A stretch of 56,668 nt of DNA from a virus, in the IMG/VR virus record IMGVR_UViG_3300028831_000281, positions 1 to 56,668 of that record; one strand, 5' to 3'. The position numbers were made by a program, and so were the translations under genes. The notes under the pieces are model-generated. The model was not told where the DNA came from. It made no database searches and saw only the letters and a list, made by a program, of their open reading frames with translations. This document shows positions 2,215-45,874 of this stretch, in pieces. How positions within the stretch are numbered: the stretch's first letter is position 1; every line of letters begins with the position of its first letter.

Positions 2215-2628
2215 GTGAACCTGGCAGTGCTGACCGGCCCGTGGGCCGTGCTGCTGGCGCTGGCCGCGTTCCGGCTGACCCGGCTGTGGGTGGACGACAC
2301 CCTGCCCCCGCTGCCCCGCATCCGAAAGGCCGTCGACGATTGGGCGATAGCCCGATGGGACCGGGCAGAGCACGCCGCCCTGGCGCGCGATCGGGTGGAG
2401 TTCGACAGCGGGACGCCCCGCCTGCGCAAGCTCCGCGAGCGACACATGGAGTCCGGCAACCAGCCGCCGATCACCTACCTGGTGACCTGCTACTGGTGCG
2501 CCGGCTTCTGGATCGGCCTGGCCGTTGTACTGGTCGCCGTGCTCGTCCCGGTCGCCGTGTGGGCCGTCCCGGTGGCCGCGCTCGCCCTGTCCGCGATCAC
2601 CGGGCTGCTGGCGCAGTTCACCGACTGA
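2215..2628 (+). CDS. DUF1360-like membrane protein
   Basis: GTG 1 nt after the upstream stop. FRLTRLWVDD and CYWCAGFW motifs plus C-terminal TM helices, as in DUF1360 proteins. Confidence 0.7.
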   Translation: MNLAVLTGPWAVLLALAAFRLTRLWVDDTLPPLPRIRKAVDDWAIARWDRAEHAALARDRVEFDSGTPRLRKLRERHMESGNQPPITYLVTCYWCAGFWIGLAVVLVAVLVPVAVWAVPVAALALSAITGLLAQFTD

Positions 2629-2639
2629 AGGGGGCAAGG

Positions 2640-5363
2640 GTGGCGCGCACTGTTCGCCAGGCTGTGGCCGGCAACCTGGACCGTCTGCGGATGGATCCGG
2701 ACCGGGCGAAGAGCGCCATCCAGTACGCGCTGCGCGGCATGGAGCGCTCGGCGCACGCCCGGCAGCATCCGCGTGTGCTGCGCGCGTCCGGCACCCGCAT
2801 CTATTCCATGGCCCCGGAGCGAATGCGCGCCCTGGCCGGCAACAAGCAGAGCTGGCAGCCGATCGCCTGGCAGTACCGGGACAACATCGGCGAACTGCGA
2901 TTCGCGATGCAGTACCGGGCCCGCGCCCTGTCCAAGATCAGTTTTCACGTCGCGGAGATCATCGCGGGCGACGACGAGCCGCTGCCCCTCTACCTGCGCG
3001 ACGAGAAGGACCAGCAGGGCAACCCCACCGAACGCTCCCAGAAGATCACCACCCCGCCCGACCTGGCCGCCGCCGCCGAAAGGGAGCTGGCCCGGCTGCC
3101 GCTTGAGGACGGGTTCAGCTTCCAGGGCATCTGGTCGGAGAACCAGGACGTTGCGGGGGAGTGCTGGCTGCACGGCTACCAGGACCCGGACACCGGGGAG
3201 GAGGTGTGGAAGATCCGGTCGGTGCTGGACGTGGGCACACAGGGCAGCCAGATGACCGTCACCGACGAGCTGGGCCAGCCCCGTGTCATCAACCTGGGAA
3301 CCAAGGACGAGCCCGGCACCGAGGAGATCTACCGGCTGTGGGTGCCGCACCCCGCCCACCCGCACCTTGCGGACTCGGCCCTGCGGGCGATGATGGACGT
3401 GCTCGAGGACATCACCCTGTACGGCCGGGAGATGCGCGCGGTGTCGCGCAGCCGCATCGCCAACAACGGGATCTGGATGATTCCGGAGAACATGGCCACC
3501 CTGCGCAACCTGTTGCAGGACACTGAGGCATCCGAGGACGGGCCGAGCAGCTTCATGGCCGCCCTTCAGGCCGCGTTCCTGGCGCCGATCTCCAACGAAG
3601 GCGAGCCGGGCGGGGTGGTGCCGGCCATCATCACCGGCAACCGCGAAGACATCGAAGTGGCGTCGAAGTCGTTCATCCGGTTTGAGCGTGAGACCAGCAG
3701 CGACATCATCGAAAAGCTCAAGACCGCGCTCGGTCGCATGGGCAACAGCCTGGACCTGCCGCCCGAGGTCATCACCGGCATGGCCGACGCCAACCACTGG
3801 ACCGGCTGGCTGATCGACGCATCCGGGTTCCGCTACCACCTGGAGCCGTCCGCGCGCCTCCAGGTGGACAGCCTGACCGTGCCGTTCCTGCGCGCCAACC
3901 TGGTCGGCCAGGGCTTCCCCCCCGAGCAGGTCCGCAAGCTGCGTATCTGGTTCGAGGCGGGCAACCTGACCGAGAACCCCAACCGCCGCCAGGACGCGCT
4001 GGACGCCCTGGACCGCATCCTGATCGGCCCGGCCGCCGGCCGCAAGGCGTTGGGCTTCTCCGAGGGCGATGCGCCCACCAGCGAGGAAGCCCTCCAGTTG
4101 ATCGCGGCGAAGGCGGGCATCGATCAGGCCGCCGCCGTCAAGCTGCTGGCGCTGTTGGCCGCGCAGGAGGGCGCCGAGCTACCGGAGCAGCTCACCGAGC
4201 CGGTGCGCGCCGAGGCGACCCGCGTGGACCCGCCGCCCGTGCAGGACCCGACCGCGCCCGGCCAGACCCCGGACACGGCGCCGCCCGGTATCACCGCCGC
4301 CGCGCCGCCGCCGAGCTACGAGCTGGATACCGACACCGCGCAGAAGCTGGCCCAGATCGAGCAGGCCCTGCGCCTGGAGCTGCTGCACATCGCCGACGCC
4401 GCCACCGCGCGGGCGCTGGAGCGGGCCGGCAGCCGGCTGCGGGCGAAGGCCACGAAGCGCCCCGAGGTGGCCACCAACCTGTCCGATGTGGCGGTCACGC
4501 ACTGGGCCAGCAAGCTTGGCCGGGAGCAGACGTTCGCGCTCGGCGCCAACGTGCGCTTCCTGCTGAACGAGGCGTGGGCGACCTTGCGGGAGGCGTTCGT
4601 CCGCAAGGTGACGCTGGCGGTCGGCGAGATCACCAGCCGCCTGGCGGACCGGTTGCTGCGGGGTCGGTTGGGCGCCGCCGGGGCGAGTGCCGCCGCCGAG
4701 CGCATGCGCACCCAGATGCTGTCCCGTGTGGACGACGCCTGGGCCACGCTGGAGTCCGGCCTGAACGCCAACGCCGAGCGGCTGATGTTCGGCGAGTCCG
4801 ACACCGACGACGTGGGCGAACTGCCTGACCTGTCCGTTCCGCCGGCCCTGGTGCGCCGCGCCCTGGCCGAGGTGGGCGGCCTGGCCGAAACCTCCAGCGG
4901 GCAGGAGTTCAGCGCCGAGCCGATCGGCGGCCTGGCCACCGGAGCCACCGCCACCCGCGAGCTGGACGCCGCCGGCATCATCCCGGTGGGCTACCTGTGG
5001 GTGTACGGGGTGACGCCGCTGGCCCGCGAGTTCCCGCCGCACCGCGACCTGGAGGGGGAGCGGTTCACGGGCTGGACCGACCCCAAGCTCACCCCGGACC
5101 CGCGCTACAAGTTCGTGGGCGACTTCTACCATCCGGGAGATCACCGGGGCTGCATGTGCAACTACGTGCCTGCCTACGCGGTGCCGGCCTACGCCGCGCA
5201 AACCGCCGAGCGCCTGCGGGTGCCGAGCCAGCCCACCCAGTGGCTGCTGGACCTGGCCGCCCGCGACGACGCCGCCGGCCGCCGGGGCACCACCGCCCAG
5301 GAGACCCGCGACCAGTGGCAGGCTATCCAGGATCTCCAGTCCCGATTTATGAGCGGAGCGTGA
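2640..5363 (+). CDS. portal protein fused to a MuF-like head morphogenesis domain
   Basis: GTG 2640 with GAAGGGGG SD inside ORF 2241..5363. N-terminal ~600 aa portal-like. C-terminus carries the Mu-F/SPP1 gp7-type motif YHPGDHRGCMCNYVP. Confidence 0.8.
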   Translation: MARTVRQAVAGNLDRLRMDPDRAKSAIQYALRGMERSAHARQHPRVLRASGTRIYSMAPERMRALAGNKQSWQPIAWQYRDNIGELRFAMQYRARALSKISFHVAEIIAGDDEPLPLYLRDEKDQQGNPTERSQKITTPPDLAAAAERELARLPLEDGFSFQGIWSENQDVAGECWLHGYQDPDTGEEVWKIRSVLDVGTQGSQMTVTDELGQPRVINLGTKDEPGTEEIYRLWVPHPAHPHLADSALRAMMDVLEDITLYGREMRAVSRSRIANNGIWMIPENMATLRNLLQDTEASEDGPSSFMAALQAAFLAPISNEGEPGGVVPAIITGNREDIEVASKSFIRFERETSSDIIEKLKTALGRMGNSLDLPPEVITGMADANHWTGWLIDASGFRYHLEPSARLQVDSLTVPFLRANLVGQGFPPEQVRKLRIWFEAGNLTENPNRRQDALDALDRILIGPAAGRKALGFSEGDAPTSEEALQLIAAKAGIDQAAAVKLLALLAAQEGAELPEQLTEPVRAEATRVDPPPVQDPTAPGQTPDTAPPGITAAAPPPSYELDTDTAQKLAQIEQALRLELLHIADAATARALERAGSRLRAKATKRPEVATNLSDVAVTHWASKLGREQTFALGANVRFLLNEAWATLREAFVRKVTLAVGEITSRLADRLLRGRLGAAGASAAAERMRTQMLSRVDDAWATLESGLNANAERLMFGESDTDDVGELPDLSVPPALVRRALAEVGGLAETSSGQEFSAEPIGGLATGATATRELDAAGIIPVGYLWVYGVTPLAREFPPHRDLEGERFTGWTDPKLTPDPRYKFVGDFYHPGDHRGCMCNYVPAYAVPAYAAQTAERLRVPSQPTQWLLDLAARDDAAGRRGTTAQETRDQWQAIQDLQSRFMSGA

Positions 5364-5367
5364 CCCG

Positions 5368-5670
5368 GTGACCGTTCCATCGTTCGGCCCCAAGCCCACC
5401 AGCCAGGGCGTGCGCGGCTACCGAAACCTGACCGACGCCGAGGTGGAGTGGGTCAACAGCATCAAGATGCTGGAGGAGCTGGTGGCCGAACGGTGGGGCG
5501 ACGTAGCCCGACGCGAGGTCAACCAGCGCTGGATGGCCGTGGCCCGCACTCACTTCCAGGAGGGCTTCACCGCGCTGATCCGGGCCATCACCCAGCCCCA
5601 CGACCCGTTCCAGGTCCAGGCGGAAAACAACGCACAGGACTTTATCGAGGGCGCACCGCCGAGGAGCTGA
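5368..5670 (+). CDS. hypothetical protein
   Basis: ORF track. GTG 5 nt after the portal stop. 100 aa. Confidence 0.6.
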   Translation: MTVPSFGPKPTSQGVRGYRNLTDAEVEWVNSIKMLEELVAERWGDVARREVNQRWMAVARTHFQEGFTALIRAITQPHDPFQVQAENNAQDFIEGAPPRS

Positions 5671-5672
5671 CC

Positions 5673-8144
5673 ATGGAAACGATCGACGACATCACGCCGG
5701 ACGCGCGCACCCTGGAGCTGGAACGCCCGGAGGGCACCGCGCCCGTCAAGCTGGTCCTGGCCGTGGAGGGCCTGGACACGTCGGACGGCCGATTCATCAA
5801 CGTGGGCGCCCTGGACACCCGCCCCATGCCGCTCACCATCTGGGCTCAGGTCCGCTCCACCCACGGCATCGAGGGCGATGCCGCCACGTTCGTGGTGGGC
5901 TCGATCACCGAGGCCGAGCGCGTGCCGGGTCCCGAGGTGGTCCAGCGCTCCACCGGGGAGCCGTTCCCGCCGGACACCGCCGTGTGGTTGGGTCGGGGCT
6001 GGATGTACACCGACGTGCCGAGCCCCGAGTCGGGCAGCAAGCCGGCCTACACGCTGATGAAGGACGGCGCCCTGTACGGCAACAGCGTGGACCTGGTTGC
6101 CGTTGACGCCGAGTTCGTGTACGGGGAGAACGATCCGCTGGACGGGCCGCCCCGCCAGATCGTGACGCACAGCGCGTCGATCGCCTCCACCACCCTGGTG
6201 GGCATCCCCGCTTTTCAGGATGCGTTCGTGGAGGTGGACGGCGAGCCGATCACCCCGAGCACTGAGGCCCTGGCGTTGGTGGCGGCCGGCCCGGCGATCC
6301 CGTCGTGGCGTTCGGCGGAGATCGGCGACAAGTGCGGGCCGTGCCTGGCCGCGCCCGCCGAGGAGCATTTCACCCCGGAGGCTGCGGCGCACTCGGTCGC
6401 CGTGCTGCGCGAGGCGCTGGCCGATCAGGGGCTGGCCGAGCCGGAGCCGTTCGCCGACGTGCTTACGGGCGATGACCTGGAGCCGGCCGCGCTGGACTTC
6501 TCTACCAGCGGCATGGTGGCGCTCATCCCGGCGGAGCCGGGCCTGTTGGCGGTGCCGGCCGGCGACCGTCCCGACGATCTGCACCTGACCCTGGCCTACC
6601 TGGGCGAGGAGGTGACGAGTTGGCGCCCGGAGGAGATCGCCGCCGTGCACGCGGTGGCGCGCTCGGCGACCGACGCGGAGGAGCAGTGCCGGCAGGCCAC
6701 GGAACGCGCGCTGGAGGCGAACGAGGAGCCGCCCGAGTGCGACATGCTGTATGTGTCCCCGGCGCAGGAAGGCCCGCTGGGTCTCCGGGTGTTTGCCCAC
6801 GCCCTGTTCAACCCGAACGGTGACAACGGGTTCGACCCGGCCGCCGTGTACCTGTTCGACGGAAGTGGGCACTCATCCACGGTGACCGCGTTGGCCGAGC
6901 AGATCTCCAACGAGCTGGCCCGGCAGGTGGGCGCCGCGCAGTTCCCCGAGCAGCACCGGCCGTTCATCCCGCACGTCACCGCCGGATACAACCTGGACCC
7001 AAACCAGTTGAGCTACACCGGCCCGGTCACGTTCGACCGGATCCGGGTGGCGATCGGCAACCAGCGCACCGACTACCCGCTGGGCGGCGGGTCGGCGATC
7101 GTGGCCGCCGCCGCGCCGCTGCCACCCGCAGCCTGGTTCGATGACCCCAAGCTCGAGGGCCCCACCGCAGCTACGGTGACCGAGGACGGGCGCGTGTTCG
7201 GTCACCTGGCCACCTGGGGCACCTGTCACGTCACGTTCCCCGGCCAGTGCATCACCCCGCCGCGCAGCCCGTCCGGGTACGCCTACTTCCTGGTGCACTC
7301 CACCCGGGCGCTGGGCGCGAGTGGCCAGGTGGTGGAGGTGCCGGTGGGCTACGGCACCCTGTCGCGCGATTCGGCCGGTGGGCACGCCGCCGTGACCATG
7401 TCGGCGACGGAGGCCGCCCGGCACTACGACAACACGTGTACGGCCGTCTATGAGATCAACGTGGGCGAGGACGATCACGGGATCTGGTTCGCCGGGCGGC
7501 TGATGCCTGGCCTGGACGAGTTCACCGAGCACAAGGCGCGCGGTGTGGCTTTCTCCGGGGACTGGCGGCCGATCAGGGGCCGGCGTGAGCTGGTGGCCGC
7601 GCTCGGCGTGAACACCCCCGGGTTCCCGGTTCCGCGCGTGCGTGTGGTGGGCGGGCAGCCGGCCGCGCTGGTGGCCGCCGGGGTTCCGCTCGCCGAGCCG
7701 GTCAGTGTTCCGGTGCCGGGCGGGGCTGTGGCGCAGCTCGCCGCGTGGGTGGCCGAGCAGCGCGACACCGCCGAGCGGGAGCGCGTTGAATGGGCGTACG
7801 CGCTCACCAGCGCTGAGCTGACGCTGGCCCTCGAGGGTGACCATCCGTGGTTCTCCGCTACCGAAACCGCTGAGGTGCTGGAGTCGCTGGGCGCGCTGCT
7901 CGGCGAGGAATACGCCGGCAAGAAACTGCACTTGCCGCCATTCATTAAGAGAATAGAAAAGCATCTCCGAGCCAAGGGGATGAGCGAATCCCACGCCATT
8001 GCCACGGCAGTGAACGCCGCTAAGAAGATGTGTTCCACGGGAGACATCTCGTTTCCTGGCCGCCAGCAGATTAACCCAGGGAGCCGGGCAGAGGCGTGCC
8101 GTGCCGTGGCGCAATGGAAGAAAGACCGGCCCGGCGCTCGATAG
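5673..8144 (+). CDS. capsid maturation (prohead) protease with an inserted 2H phosphoesterase domain
   Basis: ATG after GAGGAG in ORF 5448..8144. Blocks EGLDTSDGRF (N-terminal) and GHLATWGTCH..HYDNT..GIWFAG (C-terminal) look like actinophage prohead proteases. LHLTLAYLG / PHVTAGY lie between them. Confidence 0.7.
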   Translation: METIDDITPDARTLELERPEGTAPVKLVLAVEGLDTSDGRFINVGALDTRPMPLTIWAQVRSTHGIEGDAATFVVGSITEAERVPGPEVVQRSTGEPFPPDTAVWLGRGWMYTDVPSPESGSKPAYTLMKDGALYGNSVDLVAVDAEFVYGENDPLDGPPRQIVTHSASIASTTLVGIPAFQDAFVEVDGEPITPSTEALALVAAGPAIPSWRSAEIGDKCGPCLAAPAEEHFTPEAAAHSVAVLREALADQGLAEPEPFADVLTGDDLEPAALDFSTSGMVALIPAEPGLLAVPAGDRPDDLHLTLAYLGEEVTSWRPEEIAAVHAVARSATDAEEQCRQATERALEANEEPPECDMLYVSPAQEGPLGLRVFAHALFNPNGDNGFDPAAVYLFDGSGHSSTVTALAEQISNELARQVGAAQFPEQHRPFIPHVTAGYNLDPNQLSYTGPVTFDRIRVAIGNQRTDYPLGGGSAIVAAAAPLPPAAWFDDPKLEGPTAATVTEDGRVFGHLATWGTCHVTFPGQCITPPRSPSGYAYFLVHSTRALGASGQVVEVPVGYGTLSRDSAGGHAAVTMSATEAARHYDNTCTAVYEINVGEDDHGIWFAGRLMPGLDEFTEHKARGVAFSGDWRPIRGRRELVAALGVNTPGFPVPRVRVVGGQPAALVAAGVPLAEPVSVPVPGGAVAQLAAWVAEQRDTAERERVEWAYALTSAELTLALEGDHPWFSATETAEVLESLGALLGEEYAGKKLHLPPFIKRIEKHLRAKGMSESHAIATAVNAAKKMCSTGDISFPGRQQINPGSRAEACRAVAQWKKDRPGAR
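6504..7082 (+). other. LigT-like 2H phosphoesterase domain (aa ~278-470 of the protease ORF)
   Basis: Two H-x-T motifs in the canonical context: MVALIP..DDLHLTLAYLGE (His codon at 6582) and RPFIPHVTAGY (His codon at 6972), then TFDRIRVAIG. Confidence 0.7.
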
Positions 8145-8398: not shown

Positions 8399-8433
8399 AG
8401 AGGGCCCGGCACCCCATCGGCGCCGGGCCCTCT
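8399..8433. terminator. bidirectional GC-rich hairpin
   Basis: 12-bp stem agagggcccggc / gccgggccctct between convergent genes ending at 8394 (+) and 8444 (-). Confidence 0.7.
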
Positions 8434-8443
8434 CGTCTGCGGT

Positions 8444-8920
8444 TCAGTGGCCGCAGTGCCCGCAGTCGCCAAGCACCGCGTTGGGCAGCTCGGCCTGGGC
8501 CACCTCATCGAGGCGGTAACGGCGGGTGAATCCCCAGGTGTTGCTGGTGAGACTGGCATTGGCGTGCGCGCCGATCTCGCCGATCGTGCCGATCTCCCGG
8601 TGGCCGTTGGTCAGGGTGAGCAGCACGGGCAGGTGCCCGTTGGCGGCTGCGTCCACCAGAATCCGGCAGGTGTGCTCATCCAGGTGCGGGTGCACGTCCT
8701 GGAGCTGGTAGGCCAGGTCAGACAGCGCCGGCCAGTACAGCTTGAGCTGGGCCCGCAGGTGGGCGTTCAGGTAGCTGCCGTTGAGGGTGCCTTCCCAGGT
8801 GACATCGGTGAGCGGGCGGCGAAGTTCGCGAGCCGGGCGCTCGGCGGGCCGGCTCAGATCGGCATCCTGTTCGGCTTCCAGGTCGTTCATGGTTCCGTCT
8901 CCGTAATGCGTCTCAGCCAT
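8444..8920 (-). CDS. hypothetical protein (accessory island)
   Basis: Internal ATG (MAETHYGDG...) of ORF 8444..8986 directly after a promoter-leader cassette. 158 aa ending CGHCGH. Confidence 0.65.
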   Translation of the reverse strand: MAETHYGDGTMNDLEAEQDADLSRPAERPARELRRPLTDVTWEGTLNGSYLNAHLRAQLKLYWPALSDLAYQLQDVHPHLDEHTCRILVDAAANGHLPVLLTLTNGHREIGTIGEIGAHANASLTSNTWGFTRRYRLDEVAQAELPNAVLGDCGHCGH

Positions 8921-8986
8921 TTCGGGTCCTTCCGGGGAGGTCGTTCCTTGTACCGATACGGTACACCCCCGAATCCCGGGGGTCAA
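8921..8986 (-). promoter_or_regulatory. promoter + conserved leader cassette
   Basis: -35 TTGACC (8986-8981), 17-nt spacer, -10 TACCGT (8963-8958), CAAGGAACGACC, GGAAGGACCC, ATG at 8920. Confidence 0.7.
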
Positions 8987-9004
8987 GTCCGGGATTCGGG
9001 GGTG
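8964..9004 (-). terminator. 16-bp hairpin whose loop carries the -35 of the next promoter
   Basis: cacccccgaatcccgg (8964-8979) pairs with ccgggattcgggggtg (8989-9004). Loop gggtcaagt holds ggtcaa. Lies 7 nt past the stop of 9011..9274. Confidence 0.6.
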
Positions 9005-9010
9005 CCGGTT

Positions 9011-9274
9011 TCAGAACTGCGGGCCGTGCTCCAGGCCGCGCAGCGACATCTCGTAGGCCGACTCTGACTCGGCCTGCCGCCGCTGAACATCTTCCACCGT
9101 GAGCGCCAGGTGGGCGGCCAGCACGCGGGCCCCGTCGATGCTGTCCGGAACGTTAGACTGGTAGACCATCTGGGTGAGCATCCACGCGAGATCGAAGTCG
9201 AGGGCGTTCAGTTCCTTGAGTGCCTGGTCGATGAGGGCCAGGTTGTCCTGGTAGGTGTTCACGTGCTCGGTCAT
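9011..9274 (-). CDS. hypothetical protein (accessory island)
   Basis: Internal ATG (MTEHVNTYQ...) of ORF 9011..9358 after a cassette. 87 aa, acidic and helical. Confidence 0.65.
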   Translation of the reverse strand: MTEHVNTYQDNLALIDQALKELNALDFDLAWMLTQMVYQSNVPDSIDGARVLAAHLALTVEDVQRRQAESESAYEMSLRGLEHGPQF

Positions 9275-9340
9275 CTGCGGGTCCTTCCCGATCGGTCGTT
9301 CCTGGAGCCTCACGGTACACCCCTGACTATCCGGGGTCAA
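9275..9340 (-). promoter_or_regulatory. promoter + conserved leader cassette
   Basis: -35 TTGACC (9340-9335), 17-nt spacer, -10 TACCGT (9317-9312), CAGGAACGACC, GGAAGGACCC, ATG 9274. Confidence 0.7.
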
Positions 9341-9358
9341 CAACACCCGGCCTGCCAC

Positions 9359-9424
9359 TTGACCCCTAATCTCAGGGGGTGTACCGTGAGCAGGACAAGG
9401 GAACGACCACCACGGAGGACCCCG
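9359..9424 (+). promoter_or_regulatory. promoter + conserved leader cassette (divergent partner of 9275..9340)
   Basis: -35 TTGACC 9359-9364, 17-nt spacer, -10 TACCGT 9382-9387, GGGAACGACC, GGAGGACCCC, ATG 9425. The two -35 boxes are 18 bp apart. Confidence 0.7.
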
Positions 9425-10933
9425 ATGAACCCCCAGGACTTCAGCGCCACCGCCGGGCCCACCAAGGTCCAGCGCCTACTGGACTCCGCCACCGAGCGCG
9501 GATTGAGCGTCACCTATGACGGCAAGCCCAACGACGACCTGACCCGCAGCTACGCCTGGACGATTAAGAGCGGCGCCGAGCACGACCGGGATGCCCTGTG
9601 GCTGTTCTGGCACCCGGGCCCTAACGGCGGCTCCCTGGCCATCGACTACTACCGTCCGGAACGCGCTGCCGGCAAGAGCAACATCGAGCGCGTCACCCGC
9701 CGGCAGGCCCACCAGCAGATGCAGTGGATGCGCGAGACGCTGGAGCGCCACCAGGAGCGCGAGGCCGCCCGCGCTGAGGTCGAGGCCCACAACAACGCCC
9801 ACCCGGATGGCCCGGGGTGCACCGTGGAGCACCCCGAACTGACCCCCGCTGGCCGGTCGCTGCCCTGTGTGCTGCGCGGACCACACGCTGTCCACCAGGA
9901 CTCCGTGACTCGCAAGTGGACAGTCGGGGTGCCGGCTCCCGGTGTGGCTCAGCAGAGCCAAGAGCGCCGTCCGGAAATGATCAAGCCGGCCGTGGTGACC
10001 AACGCCAGCGACCTATCACCCGGAATGAAGATGACACTGCTCCGAGACACGCCACACAGCCCCCGGCTGACCACCAGGACCACCGTCAACGCCCTGGAGG
10101 CGCGCGGCTTGGCCGTGAGCATGGGCGATGGTTGGTGCGCCCTGACCGACCAGGGGCGCAAGGTGCGGGCCGCGCTCGAGGGCTACGCCCGCGTGTTGGG
10201 CCCCGTGGCTCCAGACGAGCATCTTGCCGCGTGCGGATGCCCTGAGCGCACCATCCAGGAAGAGGGGCACCGGGAGGGCTGCACCCTGCACGGTGCCGAC
10301 CTGGCACGCTTGGCGCAAATCCGGGCCGACGCCGAGGCCGCTGGGAACGAAGCGCTGGCCGTACAGATCACCCGTGAGAGGATCGCCATGGCCAAGAACG
10401 CGCCGGCCAGCCCGTGGCAGTACCCGGCGAACCCGCAGGACCCGAACTGGTTGCGCGCCGACCAGGTGATCCACCGCGCGGGCGAGATCCTCACCGTGGT
10501 GGCGGTGATCATCCATCAGGGCGTGTTGCGCAGCGTGGCAGTGTCCGTGAATGGCGGCTACGGCGGGAAGCTGCGCTGGTACGGCGACTACGCCGAGCCG
10601 ACCACGGGGCCCGTGTCGATGCTGTTCGACGACGAGTGCGGCCTGCCGGCTGATGAGCGCCGGCCGTGGCCGCGCAGCCTGGTGTCCGCCCATGACACGG
10701 TCCGGCGCGTTCTGCATGAGCAGCGGCTGGACGGGTGGGCGGCCGGCAAGGTGTACGAGGACGAGTCCCAGCCCGGTTACATCGTGGTGGAGGTTCCAGC
10801 GCTCCAGAATCCCGCCCGGCACCTGGCCCTGCTGGAGCGCTACGTGCCGTACGTGTGCAATGTCCGATCCCTGGGGGACAGTGAGGGCTGGACCGAAATC
10901 GCGATCGAGCCCACCGACACCCCGGAGGACTGA
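9425..10933 (+). CDS. hypothetical protein, 502 aa (accessory island)
   Basis: Internal ATG of ORF 9110..10933 after the cassette. Segment TTVNALEARGLAVSMGDGWCALTDQGRKV looks winged-helix-like. No family recognised. Confidence 0.65.
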   Translation: MNPQDFSATAGPTKVQRLLDSATERGLSVTYDGKPNDDLTRSYAWTIKSGAEHDRDALWLFWHPGPNGGSLAIDYYRPERAAGKSNIERVTRRQAHQQMQWMRETLERHQEREAARAEVEAHNNAHPDGPGCTVEHPELTPAGRSLPCVLRGPHAVHQDSVTRKWTVGVPAPGVAQQSQERRPEMIKPAVVTNASDLSPGMKMTLLRDTPHSPRLTTRTTVNALEARGLAVSMGDGWCALTDQGRKVRAALEGYARVLGPVAPDEHLAACGCPERTIQEEGHREGCTLHGADLARLAQIRADAEAAGNEALAVQITRERIAMAKNAPASPWQYPANPQDPNWLRADQVIHRAGEILTVVAVIIHQGVLRSVAVSVNGGYGGKLRWYGDYAEPTTGPVSMLFDDECGLPADERRPWPRSLVSAHDTVRRVLHEQRLDGWAAGKVYEDESQPGYIVVEVPALQNPARHLALLERYVPYVCNVRSLGDSEGWTEIAIEPTDTPED

Positions 10934-10936
10934 CCC

Positions 10937-11230
10937 ATGAACGTACCCCCCGAGGACTGGCAGAGCTGCCGGGCCTGCCGCGCTGACATCGTGTTCGGTC
11001 GCACCAGCCGAATCAGCAAGGGCAAGCCGGTGGTGATGCCGGTGGACGTGAAACCGGCTGACAACGGCACGGTGGCCCTGTCCAAGCAGGGCGGTGTCTA
11101 CTACGCGGGGGTGGTGCGCAAGAACCAAGCCGCCGGCATGCGCGATCGGGGCGTCGGCCTGCACGTTTCGCATTTCACGACGTGTCCGCAGGGTGCCCGG
11201 TTCCGCCGGTACTACCCGGACGCCGGCTGA
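10937..11230 (+). CDS. small zinc-ribbon-like protein
   Basis: ORF track. GGAGGA SD. CRAC ... HFTTCP Cys/His pattern. Confidence 0.65.
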   Translation: MNVPPEDWQSCRACRADIVFGRTSRISKGKPVVMPVDVKPADNGTVALSKQGGVYYAGVVRKNQAAGMRDRGVGLHVSHFTTCPQGARFRRYYPDAG

Positions 11231-11487
11231 TGATCGACCCCGACTATCTGGCCGACCTGCGCCGCCGCGCCACCGCCGACGCCGAGCAGCTCACCGTGGC
11301 CGAGCGCCACGAGCTGGCCACCCTGGCTCTCGGCCTGGGAAACGCCGCCCGCGCCACCGTCCGGGGCGAGTACCTCCAGCAGGCCCTGGACCTGCTCGGC
11401 GAGGCCGCGCCCACGCTGGCGCTGGAGCTGCGCCGCGTGCTCGCCGCCGCAGCGCTCTACCAGCCGGCCCGCCGCGACATCGCCTAG
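11230..11487 (+). CDS. hypothetical protein
   Basis: Internal ATG of ORF 11182..11487 overlapping the upstream stop (TGATG). 85 aa, Ala/Leu-rich. Confidence 0.55.
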   Translation: MIDPDYLADLRRRATADAEQLTVAERHELATLALGLGNAARATVRGEYLQQALDLLGEAAPTLALELRRVLAAAALYQPARRDIA

Positions 11488-11563
11488 ATGAGTTCCCCCG
11501 GGCGAGACACCCCCCACGGTCGGGACCTATGCTGCGCGCAGCGGAGGTAAGCCACCGTCCGAC

Positions 11564-11605
11564 CCCGGCCCAGCCGAGCGCGTTGGATCACTCCCGGCCC
11601 AGCCG
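11564..11605 (+). repeat. two 13-nt direct repeats (cccggcccagccg) upstream of the capsid gene
   Basis: Copies at 11564-11576 and 11593-11605 within the 163-nt non-coding region before ATG 11651. Confidence 0.6.
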
Positions 11606-11650
11606 GTCCACCCTCCGTTACATCACTGTGACGAGAGATGAGGACCCCCC

Positions 11651-37437: not shown

Positions 37438-38328
37438 ATGGAATATCGGATCATCCCGCGTGCCGAGTGGGGCGCCCGATACGACAACGGCAGCGGGCAC
37501 CGCGCGCTGCCGGCCACCGAGGTGTGGCTGCACCACTCGGTCACGATCGCCCCCGACCTGATCCCGCCGTTCGATGACGACTACCAGGCGATCCGGGACC
37601 TGGAGCAGATCGGGGAGGACCGGTTCGGCAGCGGCATCTCCTACACCTGGCCGATCACCCCCGCCGGGCTGATCTTCGAAGGCCACTCGCCGGACCGGAT
37701 CGGCACCCACACCCAGAACCACAACACGGTGGCGTCGGCGATCTGCTACGTGGGCAACTACGAGATCGCCGCGCCGACCGTGGAGCAGACCAGCGCCACG
37801 GCCTGGCTGCTCCAGCACGCGAAGGCCAACGGCTGGATCAAGTATCCCCAGATCACGGGCGGACACCAGGATCTGAAGGCCACCGCCTGCCCCGGGGCCC
37901 TGGCCTACGCCGAGATCCCGACGATCAACACGCTGGCTGCGGGGCCGCCCATCGTGGCTGTGGAGCCCAAGAAGGACGAGGAGCACGACATGCCCAATGG
38001 AGCGTTCGAACCCCGACTTGACCCGGCCAAGCCGGGCCGGATATCGATCCCCATACCGCAGGTGGGCGGTGACACCGGTCTGCGCGGGGCCCGGCTGCAC
38101 ACGTCGTGCGGCTGGTACAACGAGCTGCGCTACAAGGTGTGGTTCGCCAAGCACGGCGGCGGATATGTCAGCAACCCCGGCAAGCCGGTTCCGGAAGAGT
38201 ACGTGACCCGGTCGGACCAGCCCGGCTACATCGCGGTTCCGATCAACGCCGCCCAGATTTCGATCGAGTACACCACCACCCTGGACAACTCGCTGGCGGG
38301 CTGGACGGTCGAGCTGGACTACGCATAG
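37438..38328 (+). CDS. endolysin, N-acetylmuramoyl-L-alanine amidase (PGRP/amidase_2 type)
   Basis: IIPRAEWGA, LHHSVT, GHQDLKATACPG motifs. C-terminal ~120 aa of unknown type. Confidence 0.85.
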   Translation: MEYRIIPRAEWGARYDNGSGHRALPATEVWLHHSVTIAPDLIPPFDDDYQAIRDLEQIGEDRFGSGISYTWPITPAGLIFEGHSPDRIGTHTQNHNTVASAICYVGNYEIAAPTVEQTSATAWLLQHAKANGWIKYPQITGGHQDLKATACPGALAYAEIPTINTLAAGPPIVAVEPKKDEEHDMPNGAFEPRLDPAKPGRISIPIPQVGGDTGLRGARLHTSCGWYNELRYKVWFAKHGGGYVSNPGKPVPEEYVTRSDQPGYIAVPINAAQISIEYTTTLDNSLAGWTVELDYA

Positions 38329-38735: not shown

Positions 38736-39314
38736 ATGAGCGACGAACCAGGCACCTGGACACGCGGGGGAATCCAGTGCAAAGCCAAGAGCAAGGGCAG
38801 TCAGAAGCGCTGCCGCCGGCCGGCCACGCCCGGGCACCTGGTGTGCAAGCTGCACGGGTCGGCCAGCCCACAAGCCAAGCGCCGCGTCGAACGGGACCGG
38901 CTCATCGCCGAGGTGGAGTTGGGCGCCCGCAAGGCCCTGGACAAGCTGGGCTTCGAGCCGGTCCAGGACCCGCTGACCGAGCTTCAGCGGCTCGGCGGTG
39001 AGGTGGTGGCCTGGAAGGACCTGTTGCGCAAACTGGTGGACAAGCTGCAACAGAAGTACCGGTACGAGGGTGAGCACGCCGAGCAGATCCGGGGAGAGGT
39101 GCTGCTGTTCGAGCGCGCCCTCGACCGGTGCGCCATGGTGCTGGGCCTGATCGCCCGGCTGAAGATCGATGACCGGTTGGTGGCGATCGAGGAAGCCAAG
39201 GTCACCCAGATCGTGGATGCGGTGGAGACGGCCCTGGACGCGCTGGGCCTGTCGGTGGAGCAGCAGCTCGAGGCCAAGGCTGAAGTGGCCCGGACACTTC
39301 GGGTGGTGGGTTGA
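38736..39314 (+). CDS. terminase small subunit
   Basis: ORF track. N-terminal basic Cys cluster CKAKSKGSQKRCRRPATPGHLVCKLHG typical of actinophage TerS. Directly upstream of TerL. Confidence 0.75.
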   Translation: MSDEPGTWTRGGIQCKAKSKGSQKRCRRPATPGHLVCKLHGSASPQAKRRVERDRLIAEVELGARKALDKLGFEPVQDPLTELQRLGGEVVAWKDLLRKLVDKLQQKYRYEGEHAEQIRGEVLLFERALDRCAMVLGLIARLKIDDRLVAIEEAKVTQIVDAVETALDALGLSVEQQLEAKAEVARTLRVVG

Positions 39315-40897
39315 CCAGTGTTCTGGAGCGCGCGGCCGATGCGCTCGCGGAGAAGGCCAGCCCGCCGTACCTGAAGAAGATTCGGGACTGGCGGGATTCG
39401 TCCTGTGTGGACCCGCAGCGCTACCCGTCCCACGAGATCGCGCCCAACTGGGACGGCCCCGGCACGCTGTGCCGATCGTGCGCCACCTGTCGGCCTGAGC
39501 AGCGGCTGCCCGGCGGCGACTGGGACACCTGGCTATATTGTGCCGGCAGGGGGGCCGGCAAGACACGTAGCGCCGCCGAGGTGGTCGCCGAAACCCTGGT
39601 GATGAACCGGCGCTGGCGCATCGCCGTGCTGGCCCCCACCTACGCCGATGGCCGCGACACCTGCATCGAGGGCGAGTCCGGGCTGATCTCCATCTTCGAC
39701 CGGTGGGGCTGGCGCGAGGGCCGCGAGTACGTCTGGAACCGCAGCCTGGGTGAGCTGATCGTGCGCGCCACCCGATCCCGGGTGAAGCTCTACAGCGCCG
39801 AGAAGCCGGCCCGGCTGCGCGGACCCCAGCACCACATGGCGTGGGTGGACGAGCTGGCCCAGGTGGTCAAGGACGCCCCCGACGCCTGGGACATGCTGCT
39901 GTTCGGCCTGCGCCTAGGACGCCATCCCCGGGTCATCTGCACCACCACCCCGTTGCCCGTCCAGGTGATCAAGGATCTGCTGGCGGACGAAACCTGCACC
40001 GTCACCCGGGGCACCACCGACGACAACGCCGCCAACCTGGCCCCCGTGGTGTTGCGCAAGCTGCACCGCAAGTACGACGGCACCCGGCTGGGTCGCCAGG
40101 AGCTGGGCGCCGAGCTGCTCGATGACATCCCCGGCGCGCTGTGGCGCCGCGCATGGCTGGACGACGGGCGCATCCCCACCGAGCTGGTGGCGCGCTGGCA
40201 CGAGTGGACCGCCGAGCGCACCCAGCCGGTGGCCGCCGCGATCCTCGCCGAGCTGGAGGCGCGCGGAATCGTCCTGCACCGCATCGTGGTGGCGGTGGAC
40301 CCGGCGGTCACTTCCGGGGACGGCGACGAGGAACCCGGCGCCATGGCCACCAAGAAGGGCAAGAGCCGGGCCGACGAGTCCGGCATCGTGGTGGCCGGGC
40401 GCGGCGACGACGGGCACTTCTACGTGCTGGCCGACTACACGATCCGCGACACCCCGGATGCGGTCATGGCTAAAGTGATCCAGGCGGTGGACGACTGGGG
40501 CGCCAACGGCGTGATCGTGGAGACCAACAACGGCGGCGACTACATCCCCGGCATGCTGCGGATGTCCTGCCGGATCACCGGCCACCCCTCGATCGCCATC
40601 GAGAAGGTCCACGCCAAGAAGTCGAAGCGGGTCCGCGCCGAGCCGGTCTCGGCGATCTACGGCCAGGGTCAGGCCCACCACGTAGGCACTCACCACCACC
40701 TGGAGGACCAGATTTGCATCTGGTCTGCGGAGCTTCCGGAGTCGCCGGACCGAATGGACGCCCTGGTCTACGCCATTCTGCACCTGGACGTGCTCGGCCT
40801 GGGCTCCGAGGTGATGGCACCCAGCGGGGCGCGCGGCCGGCTTCCGCGACACCAGATGCGCAGGCACGTTCCGACCGGCTCCAGGAGGTACCGGTGA
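39311..40897 (+). CDS. terminase large subunit
   Basis: ORF track (TTG). Walker A CAGRGAGKT, then VKLYSAEKPARLRGPQHHMAWVDE, and a C-terminal nuclease-like half. Confidence 0.9.
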   Translation: MTSVLERAADALAEKASPPYLKKIRDWRDSSCVDPQRYPSHEIAPNWDGPGTLCRSCATCRPEQRLPGGDWDTWLYCAGRGAGKTRSAAEVVAETLVMNRRWRIAVLAPTYADGRDTCIEGESGLISIFDRWGWREGREYVWNRSLGELIVRATRSRVKLYSAEKPARLRGPQHHMAWVDELAQVVKDAPDAWDMLLFGLRLGRHPRVICTTTPLPVQVIKDLLADETCTVTRGTTDDNAANLAPVVLRKLHRKYDGTRLGRQELGAELLDDIPGALWRRAWLDDGRIPTELVARWHEWTAERTQPVAAAILAELEARGIVLHRIVVAVDPAVTSGDGDEEPGAMATKKGKSRADESGIVVAGRGDDGHFYVLADYTIRDTPDAVMAKVIQAVDDWGANGVIVETNNGGDYIPGMLRMSCRITGHPSIAIEKVHAKKSKRVRAEPVSAIYGQGQAHHVGTHHHLEDQICIWSAELPESPDRMDALVYAILHLDVLGLGSEVMAPSGARGRLPRHQMRRHVPTGSRRYR

Positions 40898-44968: not shown

Positions 44969-45313
44969 GGTTGCTCCGTTCAGTAGTGGTGGTGTCGCGC
45001 AATGATAGCCACCTCCCAGACCTCGCCGATTCGGTACGGCGAGTCGCGCCGCTGGTATCGGCGCGTGAAGGTCCCCCGTGTGCGCCCGGCCAGTGTGGAG
45101 CAGGTCGGCGCCTTCGACTCCCCTCGAGGGCGGGGCCCGTGGGCGCGAGCCCTGCGCACCGGGGGACCACCCAAGACCCAGCACGACGCCGCATGCCACC
45201 CGCTCCGGGGTGGGCGCCGTGCGGTGGGGGCGGCCGGATGAAACGCCGGAACGGGCTGGAGGGTGACGTATCCCCCCGCCCCCACCAGGGACCACAACCG
45301 AGAGGAGGGCCCC

Positions 45314-45874
45314 ATGTTCGAGAAGCGCGCTCCGCACCGGAACGTTCCGGTGCTCTACCTGGACCTGGACGGCACCGTGCGCCACGGACGCGACGAGCTG
45401 GGCCGGTTCGTCAACAGTCCGCAGGATGTGATCGTGTTCCCGGAGGCCATCGCCATGATGCGCGCGTGGCGGGATCGCGGCGGGCGGATCGTAGCGATCA
45501 GCAACCAGGGCGGGGTGGCGCTCGGCCATGTGTCGGAGGAGGAGGTTCACGCCGCCCTGCTGGCAACCCACCGTGCGACGGGCAGCCTGTTCGATGACCT
45601 GTTCGCCTGCGCCCACCACCCTGCCGCAACGGACCCGTTCAAGGCGCGCTGCTGGTGCCGCAAACCCAAGCCGGGCATGATCGTCATGGCGGCCATGGTC
45701 CTGGTCAACCGGCACCCGCAGGAGCACTACCCGCCGCACCTGGCTCTGATGGTGGGCGACCGCGACGAGGACCGCCTGTGCGCGCAAGCCGCCGACATCG
45801 ACTTCATGGACGCCAAGGTGTGGCGCTCCCAGGCCAACACCGCCGACCCCTACGCGAGGATCACCGATGCCTGA
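45314..45874 (+). CDS. HAD-IIIA family phosphatase (GmhB / polynucleotide 3'-phosphatase-like)
   Basis: Internal ATG of ORF 45263..45874 after GAGAGGAGGG. Motifs LDLDGT, AISNQ, CRKPKPGM, VGDRDED. Confidence 0.75.
   Translation: MFEKRAPHRNVPVLYLDLDGTVRHGRDELGRFVNSPQDVIVFPEAIAMMRAWRDRGGRIVAISNQGGVALGHVSEEEVHAALLATHRATGSLFDDLFACAHHPAATDPFKARCWCRKPKPGMIVMAAMVLVNRHPQEHYPPHLALMVGDRDEDRLCAQAADIDFMDAKVWRSQANTADPYARITDA

Follow-up and report, generated by a model that had tools for sequence, protein, structure and literature searches.

A LigT-like 2H phosphoesterase domain placed between the protease and partner domains of a phage head-maturation polyprotein, and its possible role as packaged counter-defence

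The window analyzed here is a stretch of 56,668 nucleotides of viral DNA, positions 1 to 56,668 of IMG/VR record IMGVR_UViG_3300028831_000281. Its subject is a single open reading frame (ORF) of 823 amino acids (aa), at 5673-8144, in which a 2H phosphoesterase domain is built into a phage head-maturation protein. The ORF belongs to the head-morphogenesis module, because a portal gene lies upstream of it and a major head protein gene downstream, both recognized by PHROG matches (Table 1). It sits within an open frame of 898 codons (5448-8144), has a third-position G+C content (GC3) of 0.85, and matches PHROG 18402 'head maturation protease' at E=5.8e-73 and PHROG 859 at E=2e-67. At E<=1e-10 it has 269 homologues, mostly from contigs of 55-60 kb. 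The source is a metagenomic phage with a G+C content of 70% that looks like an actinophage. Megablast of the window's first 25 kb against deposited phages returned no nucleotide-level relative.

A full-length AlphaFold2 (AF2) model, based on an alignment of 89 sequences, reached a mean predicted local distance difference test score (pLDDT) of 81.6. In this model a beta-rich region (aa 22-190) is followed by a disordered stretch (202-233), two helices and the 2H domain (278-470), while the C-terminal half consists of a second beta-rich region (~484-650), another disordered stretch (653-682) and a helical tail (684-817). The product is almost certainly composed, in this order, of an HK97-type serine protease (N domain), a linker, a LigT-like 2H domain, a partner domain (C domain) and a scaffold-like helical tail. 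Enzymatic and virion-assembly domains (protease, 2H, C domain, tail) are joined in one head-module ORF, as in the polyvalent proteins of Iyer et al. 2017.

Table 1. Coordinates of the polyprotein gene, its parts and its immediate neighbours in the window
Feature	Position	Strand	Basis or remark
Portal gene	2241..5363	+	PHROG 776, E=1.4e-81 over aa 168-803 of the ORF
Acb2/Tad1-like cyclic-nucleotide sponge gene, 100 aa	5368..5670	+	directly 5' of ORF 5673-8144
Head-maturation polyprotein ORF, 823 aa	5673..8144	+	ATG at 5673, 2 nt beyond the preceding stop codon
N domain, aa 22-190, HK97/S78-type prohead serine protease	5736..6242	+	AF2, motifs, TIGR01543 sub-threshold
Putative catalytic His64	5862-5864	+	
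Putative catalytic Ser138	6084-6086	+	
Linker, aa 191-277: disordered, then helices 235-265	6243..6503	+	AF2, conservation
LigT-like 2H phosphoesterase domain, aa 278-470	6504..7082	+	profiles, homologues, AF2 and Foldseek
2H motif 1, H304-L-T306	6582-6590	+	
2H motif 2, H434-V-T436	6972-6980	+	
C domain, aa 471-650, conserved partner domain of actinophage 'capsid maturation proteases'	7083..7622	+	PHROG, tblastn
Disordered linker, aa 651-683, then helical tail, aa 684-823	7623..8144	+	AF2 secondary structure, conservation
Major head protein gene, 606 aa	11651..13471	+	PHROG 777, E=1.9e-70

A sequence-only reading of the window had proposed a LigT-like 2H phosphoesterase domain at 6504-7082. 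This interval corresponds exactly to aa 278-470 and agrees with the modelled domain, whose strands run from 280-286 to 464-469. All of the strings on which that reading relied occur in the 823-aa translation: EGLDTSDGRF (32-41), MVALIP (281-286), DDLHLTLAYLGE (301-312), RPFIPHVTAGY (429-439), TFDRIRVAIG (452-461), GHLATWGTCH (510-519), HYDNT (584-588) and GIWFAG (603-608). When aa 258-490 are scanned alone, Pfam LigT_PEase scores 25.5 bits (E=1.5e-5; gathering score 23.3) and PF13563 scores 22.4 bits against a threshold of 27. The whole ORF reaches 21.8 bits with LigT_PEase, below 23.3, so that Pfam alone is borderline. PHROG 2659 'RNA ligase' matches the domain at E=2.5e-28, and in a phmmer comparison with PDB sequences both H-x-T motifs align with those of Thermus TT0787 (1iuh) and E. 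coli LigT. The ThpR/LigT equivalog TIGR02258 gives 27.9 bits against a cut-off of 65.7, and the domain, while LigT-like in fold and motifs, is for this reason not a ThpR/LigT orthologue.

Multiple sequence alignments place the strongest conservation at the expected catalytic positions. In the 89 full-length homologues (45-64% identity), H304, T306, H434 and T436 are invariant (89/89), and the further pocket residues H376, N380, Q427, H428 and R458 vary little or not at all. Searching with the domain alone recovered 41 homologues, with E-values down to 7e-50, and its stand-alone members (~190 aa) mostly carry PF13563; across 36 aligned 2H-domain homologues, H47, T49 and H177 (domain numbering) are invariant. 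At the level of sequence, this conservation shows the 2H active site to be intact and strongly constrained.

The AF2 model of the domain alone (mean pLDDT 88.3, predicted template modelling score 0.83) contains the internally duplicated two-lobe alpha/beta fold of the 2H superfamily. The structure search that the sequence-only reading had put forward as a check was run with Foldseek, and all 40 of the top 40 PDB matches belong to the 2H superfamily (E=2.7e-6 to 3e-2), unrelated folds appearing only from E~1. A leading group at E=3e-6 to 1e-4 comprises TT0787, LigT, the Deinococcus cyclic phosphodiesterase (CPDase) and YjcG; it is followed by Usb1, the AKAP18 central domain, phage Acb1, the coronavirus and rotavirus 2',5'-phosphodiesterases, plant CPDase and ASCC1. 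The full-length model reproduces the 2H fold matches in the PDB. The combination of invariant H-x-T motifs, profile matches and modelled fold bears out that the segment is a LigT-like 2H phosphoesterase whose active site is intact; the superfamily assignment is secure, with the LigT-like branch nearest.

The position of the domain within the polyprotein was established by comparison with relatives. Hidden Markov models (HMMs) of the four parts were built from the metagenomic family and applied, together with Pfam MuF matches, to isolated phages. Microbacterium phage BrazzalePHS gp24 (489 aa) lacks 2H and consists of abutting N and C domains, and the two also abut in the 2H-less Mycobacterium phage Obutu gp12 and Gordonia phage Shatter gp9, which are both MuF-N-C. 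Since these 2H-less relatives have the two blocks side by side, the domain is an insertion between two domains and not within one fold, in keeping with the insertion originally proposed. Its position varies by lineage among the four isolated-phage fusions mapped: Arthrobacter phage Rizwana gp17 and Streptomyces phage Salete gp11 are MuF-2H-N-C, Curtobacterium phage Kithara gp23 is 2H-N-C, and Gordonia phage Dexdert gp18 is C-2H. The window ORF is N-2H-C-tail. Among full-length metagenomic homologues, 2H is present in 120/120, with 117 arranged as N-2H-C and 3 as 2H-N-C. The H-x-T motifs are intact in the Dexdert, Salete, Rizwana and Kithara fusions and in Bxz1 gp93.

The wider family extends this pattern. 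A profile search of 1.84 billion representatives returned 748 proteins at E<=1e-30; among the best 150 of these 748, 34 are solo proteins (<260 aa), while in the other 116 the domain is one segment of a larger protein; these include several head or polyvalent proteins and show the arrangements H2-N-C, N-H2-C, H2-C, H2-T and others (H2 denoting the 2H domain). Two members of the same 2H subfamily are P0337 (2567 aa), a MuF-2H-NUDIX-ADP-ribosyltransferase protein, and P0322 (1317 aa), a portal-2H protein with a C-terminal PI3/PI4-kinase-like segment. A split form is found at locus L011 (8001-11289), where the closest stand-alone 2H homologue, P0001 (311 aa, 49% identity), lies directly 5' of a C-domain gene (418 aa) and a VIP2-like ADP-ribosyltransferase gene adjoins the pair; this split version has both injected-effector-like genes and RNA-repair genes as neighbours. 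At locus L010 the order is portal, then a MuF-like protein, then a 2H protein with a tail of its own. These domain maps show that the 2H subfamily has been joined repeatedly and independently, in variable position, to proteins built into the prohead (protease, MuF, portal).

The N domain is predicted to be the protease. AF2 gives it a beta-rich fold with pLDDT mostly above 90, and its motifs E32-G33, D38-G-R40, G45-A-L47, H64, G136-N-S138-V-D and V-G-I-P179-A180-F have equivalents in HK97 gp4, namely E27-G28, D39-G-D41, G46-A-F48, H65, G112-M-S114-V-G and T-F-P148-A149-N, in the same order and with almost identical spacing when the sequences are compared by eye. H65 and S114 are the catalytic residues of HK97 gp4. 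In the window family S138 is invariant (89/89 homologues). A His occupies position 64 in 62/89 homologues and position 69 in 27/89, and an Asp occupies position 69 in 62/89 and position 64 in 20/89; these column counts at aa 64-69 (5862-5879) look as if the putative catalytic His and its partner Asp had changed places.

Library searches of this region gave few matches. TIGR01543 proheadase_HK97 aligns with aa 119-187 of the window ORF at 12 bits (E=0.17) and with aa 539-629 of Rizwana gp17, its N domain according to the family HMM, at 20.9 bits (E=3e-4), against a cut-off of 59 in both cases. BFVD matches of the full-length model at E=1e-8 to 1e-6 include entries named 'Prohead protease', 'HK97 family phage prohead protease' and 'COG3740', the aligning domain being unspecified. 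Foldseek of the same model against the PDB returned 2H matches only and no solved protease, and the full-length family HMM against PDB sequences gave nothing useful. Pfam found nothing on the N block, the sole library match there in the whole-ORF scan (Pfam, NCBIfam) being the sub-threshold TIGR01543; PF04586 (S78) has no match in the window ORF and is also absent from seven isolated-phage homologues. An hhalign comparison of N and C with the HK97 gp4 alignment (120 homologues) was not significant, with a shallow profile whose last homologue search yielded only sequences of at least 68% identity. On the motif evidence, it is the N block, and not the C block recognized by PHROG 18402, that carries the HK97 protease signature.

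The C domain is matched by PHROGs 21470, 859, 18402 and 29860 at E=1e-43 to 1e-59 and occurs, by tblastn, in 860 phage records with labels that include 'capsid maturation protease' and 'capsid maturation protease and MuF-like fusion protein'. Pfam and NCBIfam scans found no family for either the C domain or the tail. The sequence-only reading had recognized the two flanking blocks as halves of an actinophage capsid maturation protease. Their place in an actinophage head-maturation protease polyprotein is upheld, but they are not halves of one protease fold: the protease signature lies in N, and C is a separate domain. The possibility that N and C are S78-like domains arisen by tandem duplication was also considered and dropped (hhalign of the family alignments, probability 0.2%). 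Nine residues of the C domain (H511, C518, H519, C526, H542, H571, D586, S628 and D630) are invariant in the 89 homologues, and the first four form an H-x6-C-H-x6-C cluster at 7203-7250.

The linker between N and 2H has AF2 pLDDT below 50 at aa 202-233 and aligns poorly across homologues, and within its predicted-disordered part both Cys of C221-x-x-C224 (6333-6344) are invariant in 89/89. At the other end of the protein, the tail closes with a strongly conserved motif (aa 747-823) in which C787 and C809 are invariant, and in proteins without N and C domains, P0333 and P0336 among them, this motif follows 2H directly. The tail is proposed to be a scaffold-like or capsid-targeting module, and we infer its targeting role. 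The linker CxxC, the tail residues C787 (8031-8033) and C809 (8097-8099) and the His/Cys cluster of the C domain make up one or two candidate metal-binding or disulfide sites, which could tie the linker to the tail.

The 2H domain is widespread in deposited phages. By tblastn it occurs in 382 phage records, 209 from Mycobacterium phages and 173 from others (Gordonia 138, Streptomyces 17, Arthrobacter 8, and further hosts), and among the mycobacteriophage records are Cluster C myophages in which the gene stands alone, Bxz1 gp93 being one example. In the 173 other records the domain falls, among the matches listed, within large head-protein genes annotated as 'RNA ligase', 'capsid maturation protease', 'capsid maturation protease and MuF-like fusion protein', 'portal protein' or 'hypothetical protein'. 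The first of these names misnames a protease polyprotein with a 2H phosphoesterase. Homologous fusion genes (Dexdert gp18, Kithara gp23, MelBins gp19) are likewise named inconsistently between GenBank records, one of the names being 'head maturation protease'.

The sequence-only reading was not aware of any description of such a fusion. The suggestion of novelty does not stand, given the 173 non-mycobacteriophage records and the 2H-head-protein fusions already published in the sections cited here (PMC5512222, PMC9503650). In its section 20, Iyer et al. 2017 (PMC5512222) reports 2H domains in phage polyvalent proteins, fused with MuF and portal, and offers two options for their function: a Usb1-like RNase, or degradation of host-defence 2'-5' oligoadenylate and cyclic nucleotides. 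The same paper points to assemblin-like peptidases as C-terminal parts of polyvalent proteins (PMC5512222), and section 21 of Iyer et al. 2022 (PMC9503650) again proposes packaging and injection for 2H domains fused to MuF and portal. A literature search found no paper naming the 2H-protease fusion specifically, although the figures and supplementary lists of Iyer et al. may show it. The fusion is common in actinophage genomes and metagenomes, already discussed in general form, and not new. Three features set the present case apart: a large metagenomic lineage with 2H in the N-2H-C position, the protease signature in the N block and the adjacent Acb2-like gene.

In Pfam, the product of this neighbour reaches 44.7 bits with PF24729 (Acb2/Tad1 hairpin domain; E=1.5e-11, cut-off 27), and in the PDB it matches the Acb2 'p26' entries 8ixz and 8h2j at E=2e-6. 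Acb2 is a sponge for the cyclic di- and trinucleotides of CBASS, the cyclic oligonucleotide-based anti-phage signalling system (PMC10312549). The gene is translationally coupled to the protease-2H gene. By tblastn it has relatives in 65 phage records, all from phages of Proteobacteria and 0 from actinophages, and an Acb2 homologue in a 70% G+C actinophage-like genome appears unusual. The adjacency points to cyclic-nucleotide signalling, but it is a single-genome association of limited weight because it is absent from all related loci examined.

Elsewhere in the window, the true start of the portal gene is probably downstream of 2241, and a Pfam scan of the portal ORF (2241-5363) gave no match. 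A break of ~3 kb (8400-11650) separates the protease gene from the major capsid gene; it contains a reverse-strand ORF (9011-9358) and a forward ORF of 607 aa (9110-10933), with no PHROG or Pfam match. The small genes between the protease and major capsid genes vary in relatives, with an Endonuclease_7 gene at locus L012 as one example. The terminase large subunit gene (39311-40897, +) does not adjoin the portal gene (2241-5363, +), lying ~34 kb 3' of it, or ~18 kb 5' of it if the contig is a permuted circle, and an endolysin-like gene (37438-38328) lies just 5' of this terminase gene.

A mechanism can be proposed that accounts for a phosphoesterase in this setting. The polyprotein would co-assemble into the procapsid via its tail, and the protease would then cut the disordered linkers. 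The released 2H domain would stay in the head because its ~21 kDa fold would be too big to pass the capsid pores, and it would enter the next host together with the DNA. There it would hydrolyze the second messengers of abortive infection (CBASS, type III CRISPR, and related cyclic or 2'-5'-linked oligonucleotides) or RNA 2',3'-cyclic phosphate ends, before the expression of any phage gene. Delivery would be as in T4 Alt/IPI*, and the chemistry as in Acb1, LigT or the viral 2',5'-phosphodiesterases.

Packaging, release and counter-defence are somewhat supported by context, through the recurrence of the 2H subfamily in head proteins and the Acb2-like gene upstream. Taken as a whole, a packaged and injected 2H domain that degrades immune nucleotides or RNA ends is the best explanation, and the chances that it is right are about even. 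For packaging of the domain together with a counter-defence function, the chance is even at best, or a little below. The narrower version, in which 2H is a pre-loaded eraser of immune signals that is self-excised in the prohead, is injected, and destroys cyclic-oligonucleotide or 2'-5' alarm signals from the first seconds with the Acb2-like sponge as backing, is tentative: a real possibility, but one we would not expect to hold.

Several observations weigh against packaged counter-defence. The closest fold matches are housekeeping cyclic phosphodiesterases of the LigT/ThpR type, and Acb1 is a weaker match (E~4e-4 to 1e-3 vs 3e-6 for TT0787). HK97-type proteases normally self-digest and leave the capsid. 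The stand-alone Cluster C homologues, of which Bxz1 gp93 is one, lie away from head genes, and the Acb2-like neighbour is missing both from 4 metagenomic loci and from nine isolated-phage loci (L001-L009, of which L004 is the HK97 control). The literature search turned up no proteomics, biochemistry or genetics that would document packaging, cleavage or a substrate, either for this protein or for its relatives.

Four other explanations were weighed. The main rival is RNA end-healing, in which 2H would open 2',3'-cyclic phosphate ends that host anticodon nucleases, or metal-independent RNases of other kinds, have produced, for tRNA or mRNA repair that would be early if the domain is injected, or else late. 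It fits the best structural and sequence matches, which are RNA 2',3'-cyclic phosphodiesterases of the LigT/ThpR type, and two genes or gene groups add to its case: a PNKP-Thg1-Rnl1 (T4 Rnl1) cassette at L011 (11759-14592), 3 kb from P0001, and, in the window, a 203-aa HAD-family protein (45263-45874, +) that is weakly PNK-3'-phosphatase-like (PF08645 E=0.0015, PHROG 415 E=1.7e-4) and may be a partner in healing RNA or DNA ends. The L011 cassette is, however, on the opposite strand. The window has zero tRNA genes. In a scan of the 10 larger non-structural window ORFs, a set that does not take in all small ORFs, no RNA ligase turned up. The TIGR02258 score (27.9 vs 65.7) also argues against a ThpR orthologue, and, according to section 20 of Iyer et al. 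(PMC5512222), 2H domains of this type are never associated with RNA ligases. Overall, we regard end-healing as unlikely, though deserving of serious attention. It is likewise quite unlikely that 2H is never delivered and acts only in the producing cell, for instance in a late destruction of immune signals, before being degraded or expelled at head maturation. The established removal of HK97-type proteases and scaffolds from the capsid would favour this, as would the stand-alone homologues outside head modules. Abortive-infection signalling is, however, usually triggered before or at late gene expression, so that a late-made enzyme would arrive late, and without some importance of capsid localization it is difficult to account for the repeated independent fusions with MuF, portal and the protease tail.

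An injected, Usb1-like 2H domain could instead cleave host RNA, leaving 2',3'-cyclic ends and causing host shut-off with no degradation of signals. This is one of the two options of Iyer et al. 2017, suggested there by the PBECR RNases, which are likewise fused to MuF and portal (PMC5512222), and Usb1 structures are among the fold matches (E~2e-4). The Usb1 match is nevertheless weaker than those to LigT-type enzymes, the polyprotein has no evident RNA-binding module, and the explanation is improbable. Hardly credible is an inactive or structural 2H-fold module serving as spacer or scaffold element: nothing specific speaks for it, although some 2H folds, such as the AKAP18 central domain, act as binding modules, and it is at odds with H-x-T motifs and pocket residues (H376, N380, Q427, H428, R458) that are invariant or nearly so at 45-64% identity and are kept in distant fusions.

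Should packaged counter-defence be correct, an anti-signalling enzyme would be present in the cell before any phage gene is expressed, a timing that the free enzymes Acb1 and Apyc1 and the sponge proteins cannot reach. If, more narrowly, the domain does erase immune signals, the N-2H-C arrangement would represent cargo embedded in the maturation protease itself. We know of no virion-delivered enzyme shown experimentally to degrade nucleotide signals. The idea of a packaged 2H has been in print since 2017, and the present family offers a clean test case, with an invariant active site and culturable relatives among Gordonia, Streptomyces and Arthrobacter phages. The practical gain is in annotation, where the label 'RNA ligase' is misleading.

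Comparison with known systems sets the polyprotein beside the phage polyvalent and head 2H proteins of Iyer et al. (PMC5512222, PMC9503650), with which it shares the 2H subfamily, the late-gene fusion to virion-assembly domains and, by proposal, the packaged-and-injected logic. The window 2H profile recovers MuF-2H-NUDIX-ART (ADP-ribosyltransferase), portal-2H and MuF-2H-C proteins. The partners named in the sections cited are MuF and portal, whereas the window 2H lies between a protease and its partner domain in an ORF without MuF. The actinophage fusions (Dexdert gp18, Salete gp11, Rizwana gp17, Kithara gp23) have homologous 2H, N and C domains, a head-module position and intact H-x-T motifs, but they are arranged as C-2H, MuF-2H-N-C or 2H-N-C where the window has N-2H-C, and identity is 28-40%.

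Among the enzymes, LigT/ThpR, TT0787 and the Deinococcus CPDase are the best fold matches (E=3e-6 to 1e-5, TM-score 0.55-0.60 on target) and have aligned H-x-T motifs. They differ in their 12-18% identity, in an extra helical insert of the window domain (aa ~335-366), and in being free cytoplasmic enzymes, while the window domain is embedded in a virion polyprotein. The anti-CBASS 2H nuclease Acb1 of T4 and FBB1 is phage-encoded, shares the 2H fold and is proposed as a functional analogue, although the fold similarity is at superfamily level only (7t27/7t26, E=4e-4 to 1e-3, TM-score 0.46-0.51 on target). Acb1 is a small free protein made after infection and not known to be packaged; the window domain is part of a polyprotein. 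T4 encodes both Acb1 and Acb2, a pairing to compare with the Acb2-like gene beside the window 2H.

For delivery, the proposed analogue is T4 Alt/IPI*, released by the gp21 prohead protease. As summarized by Iyer et al. 2017, these proteins become part of the prohead, are trimmed there by the head protease and leave it together with the DNA, and they act before phage transcription (PMC5512222). The T4 cargo consists of separate polypeptides with a short capsid-targeting sequence, whereas the cargo of the window would be a covalent part of the protease polyprotein.

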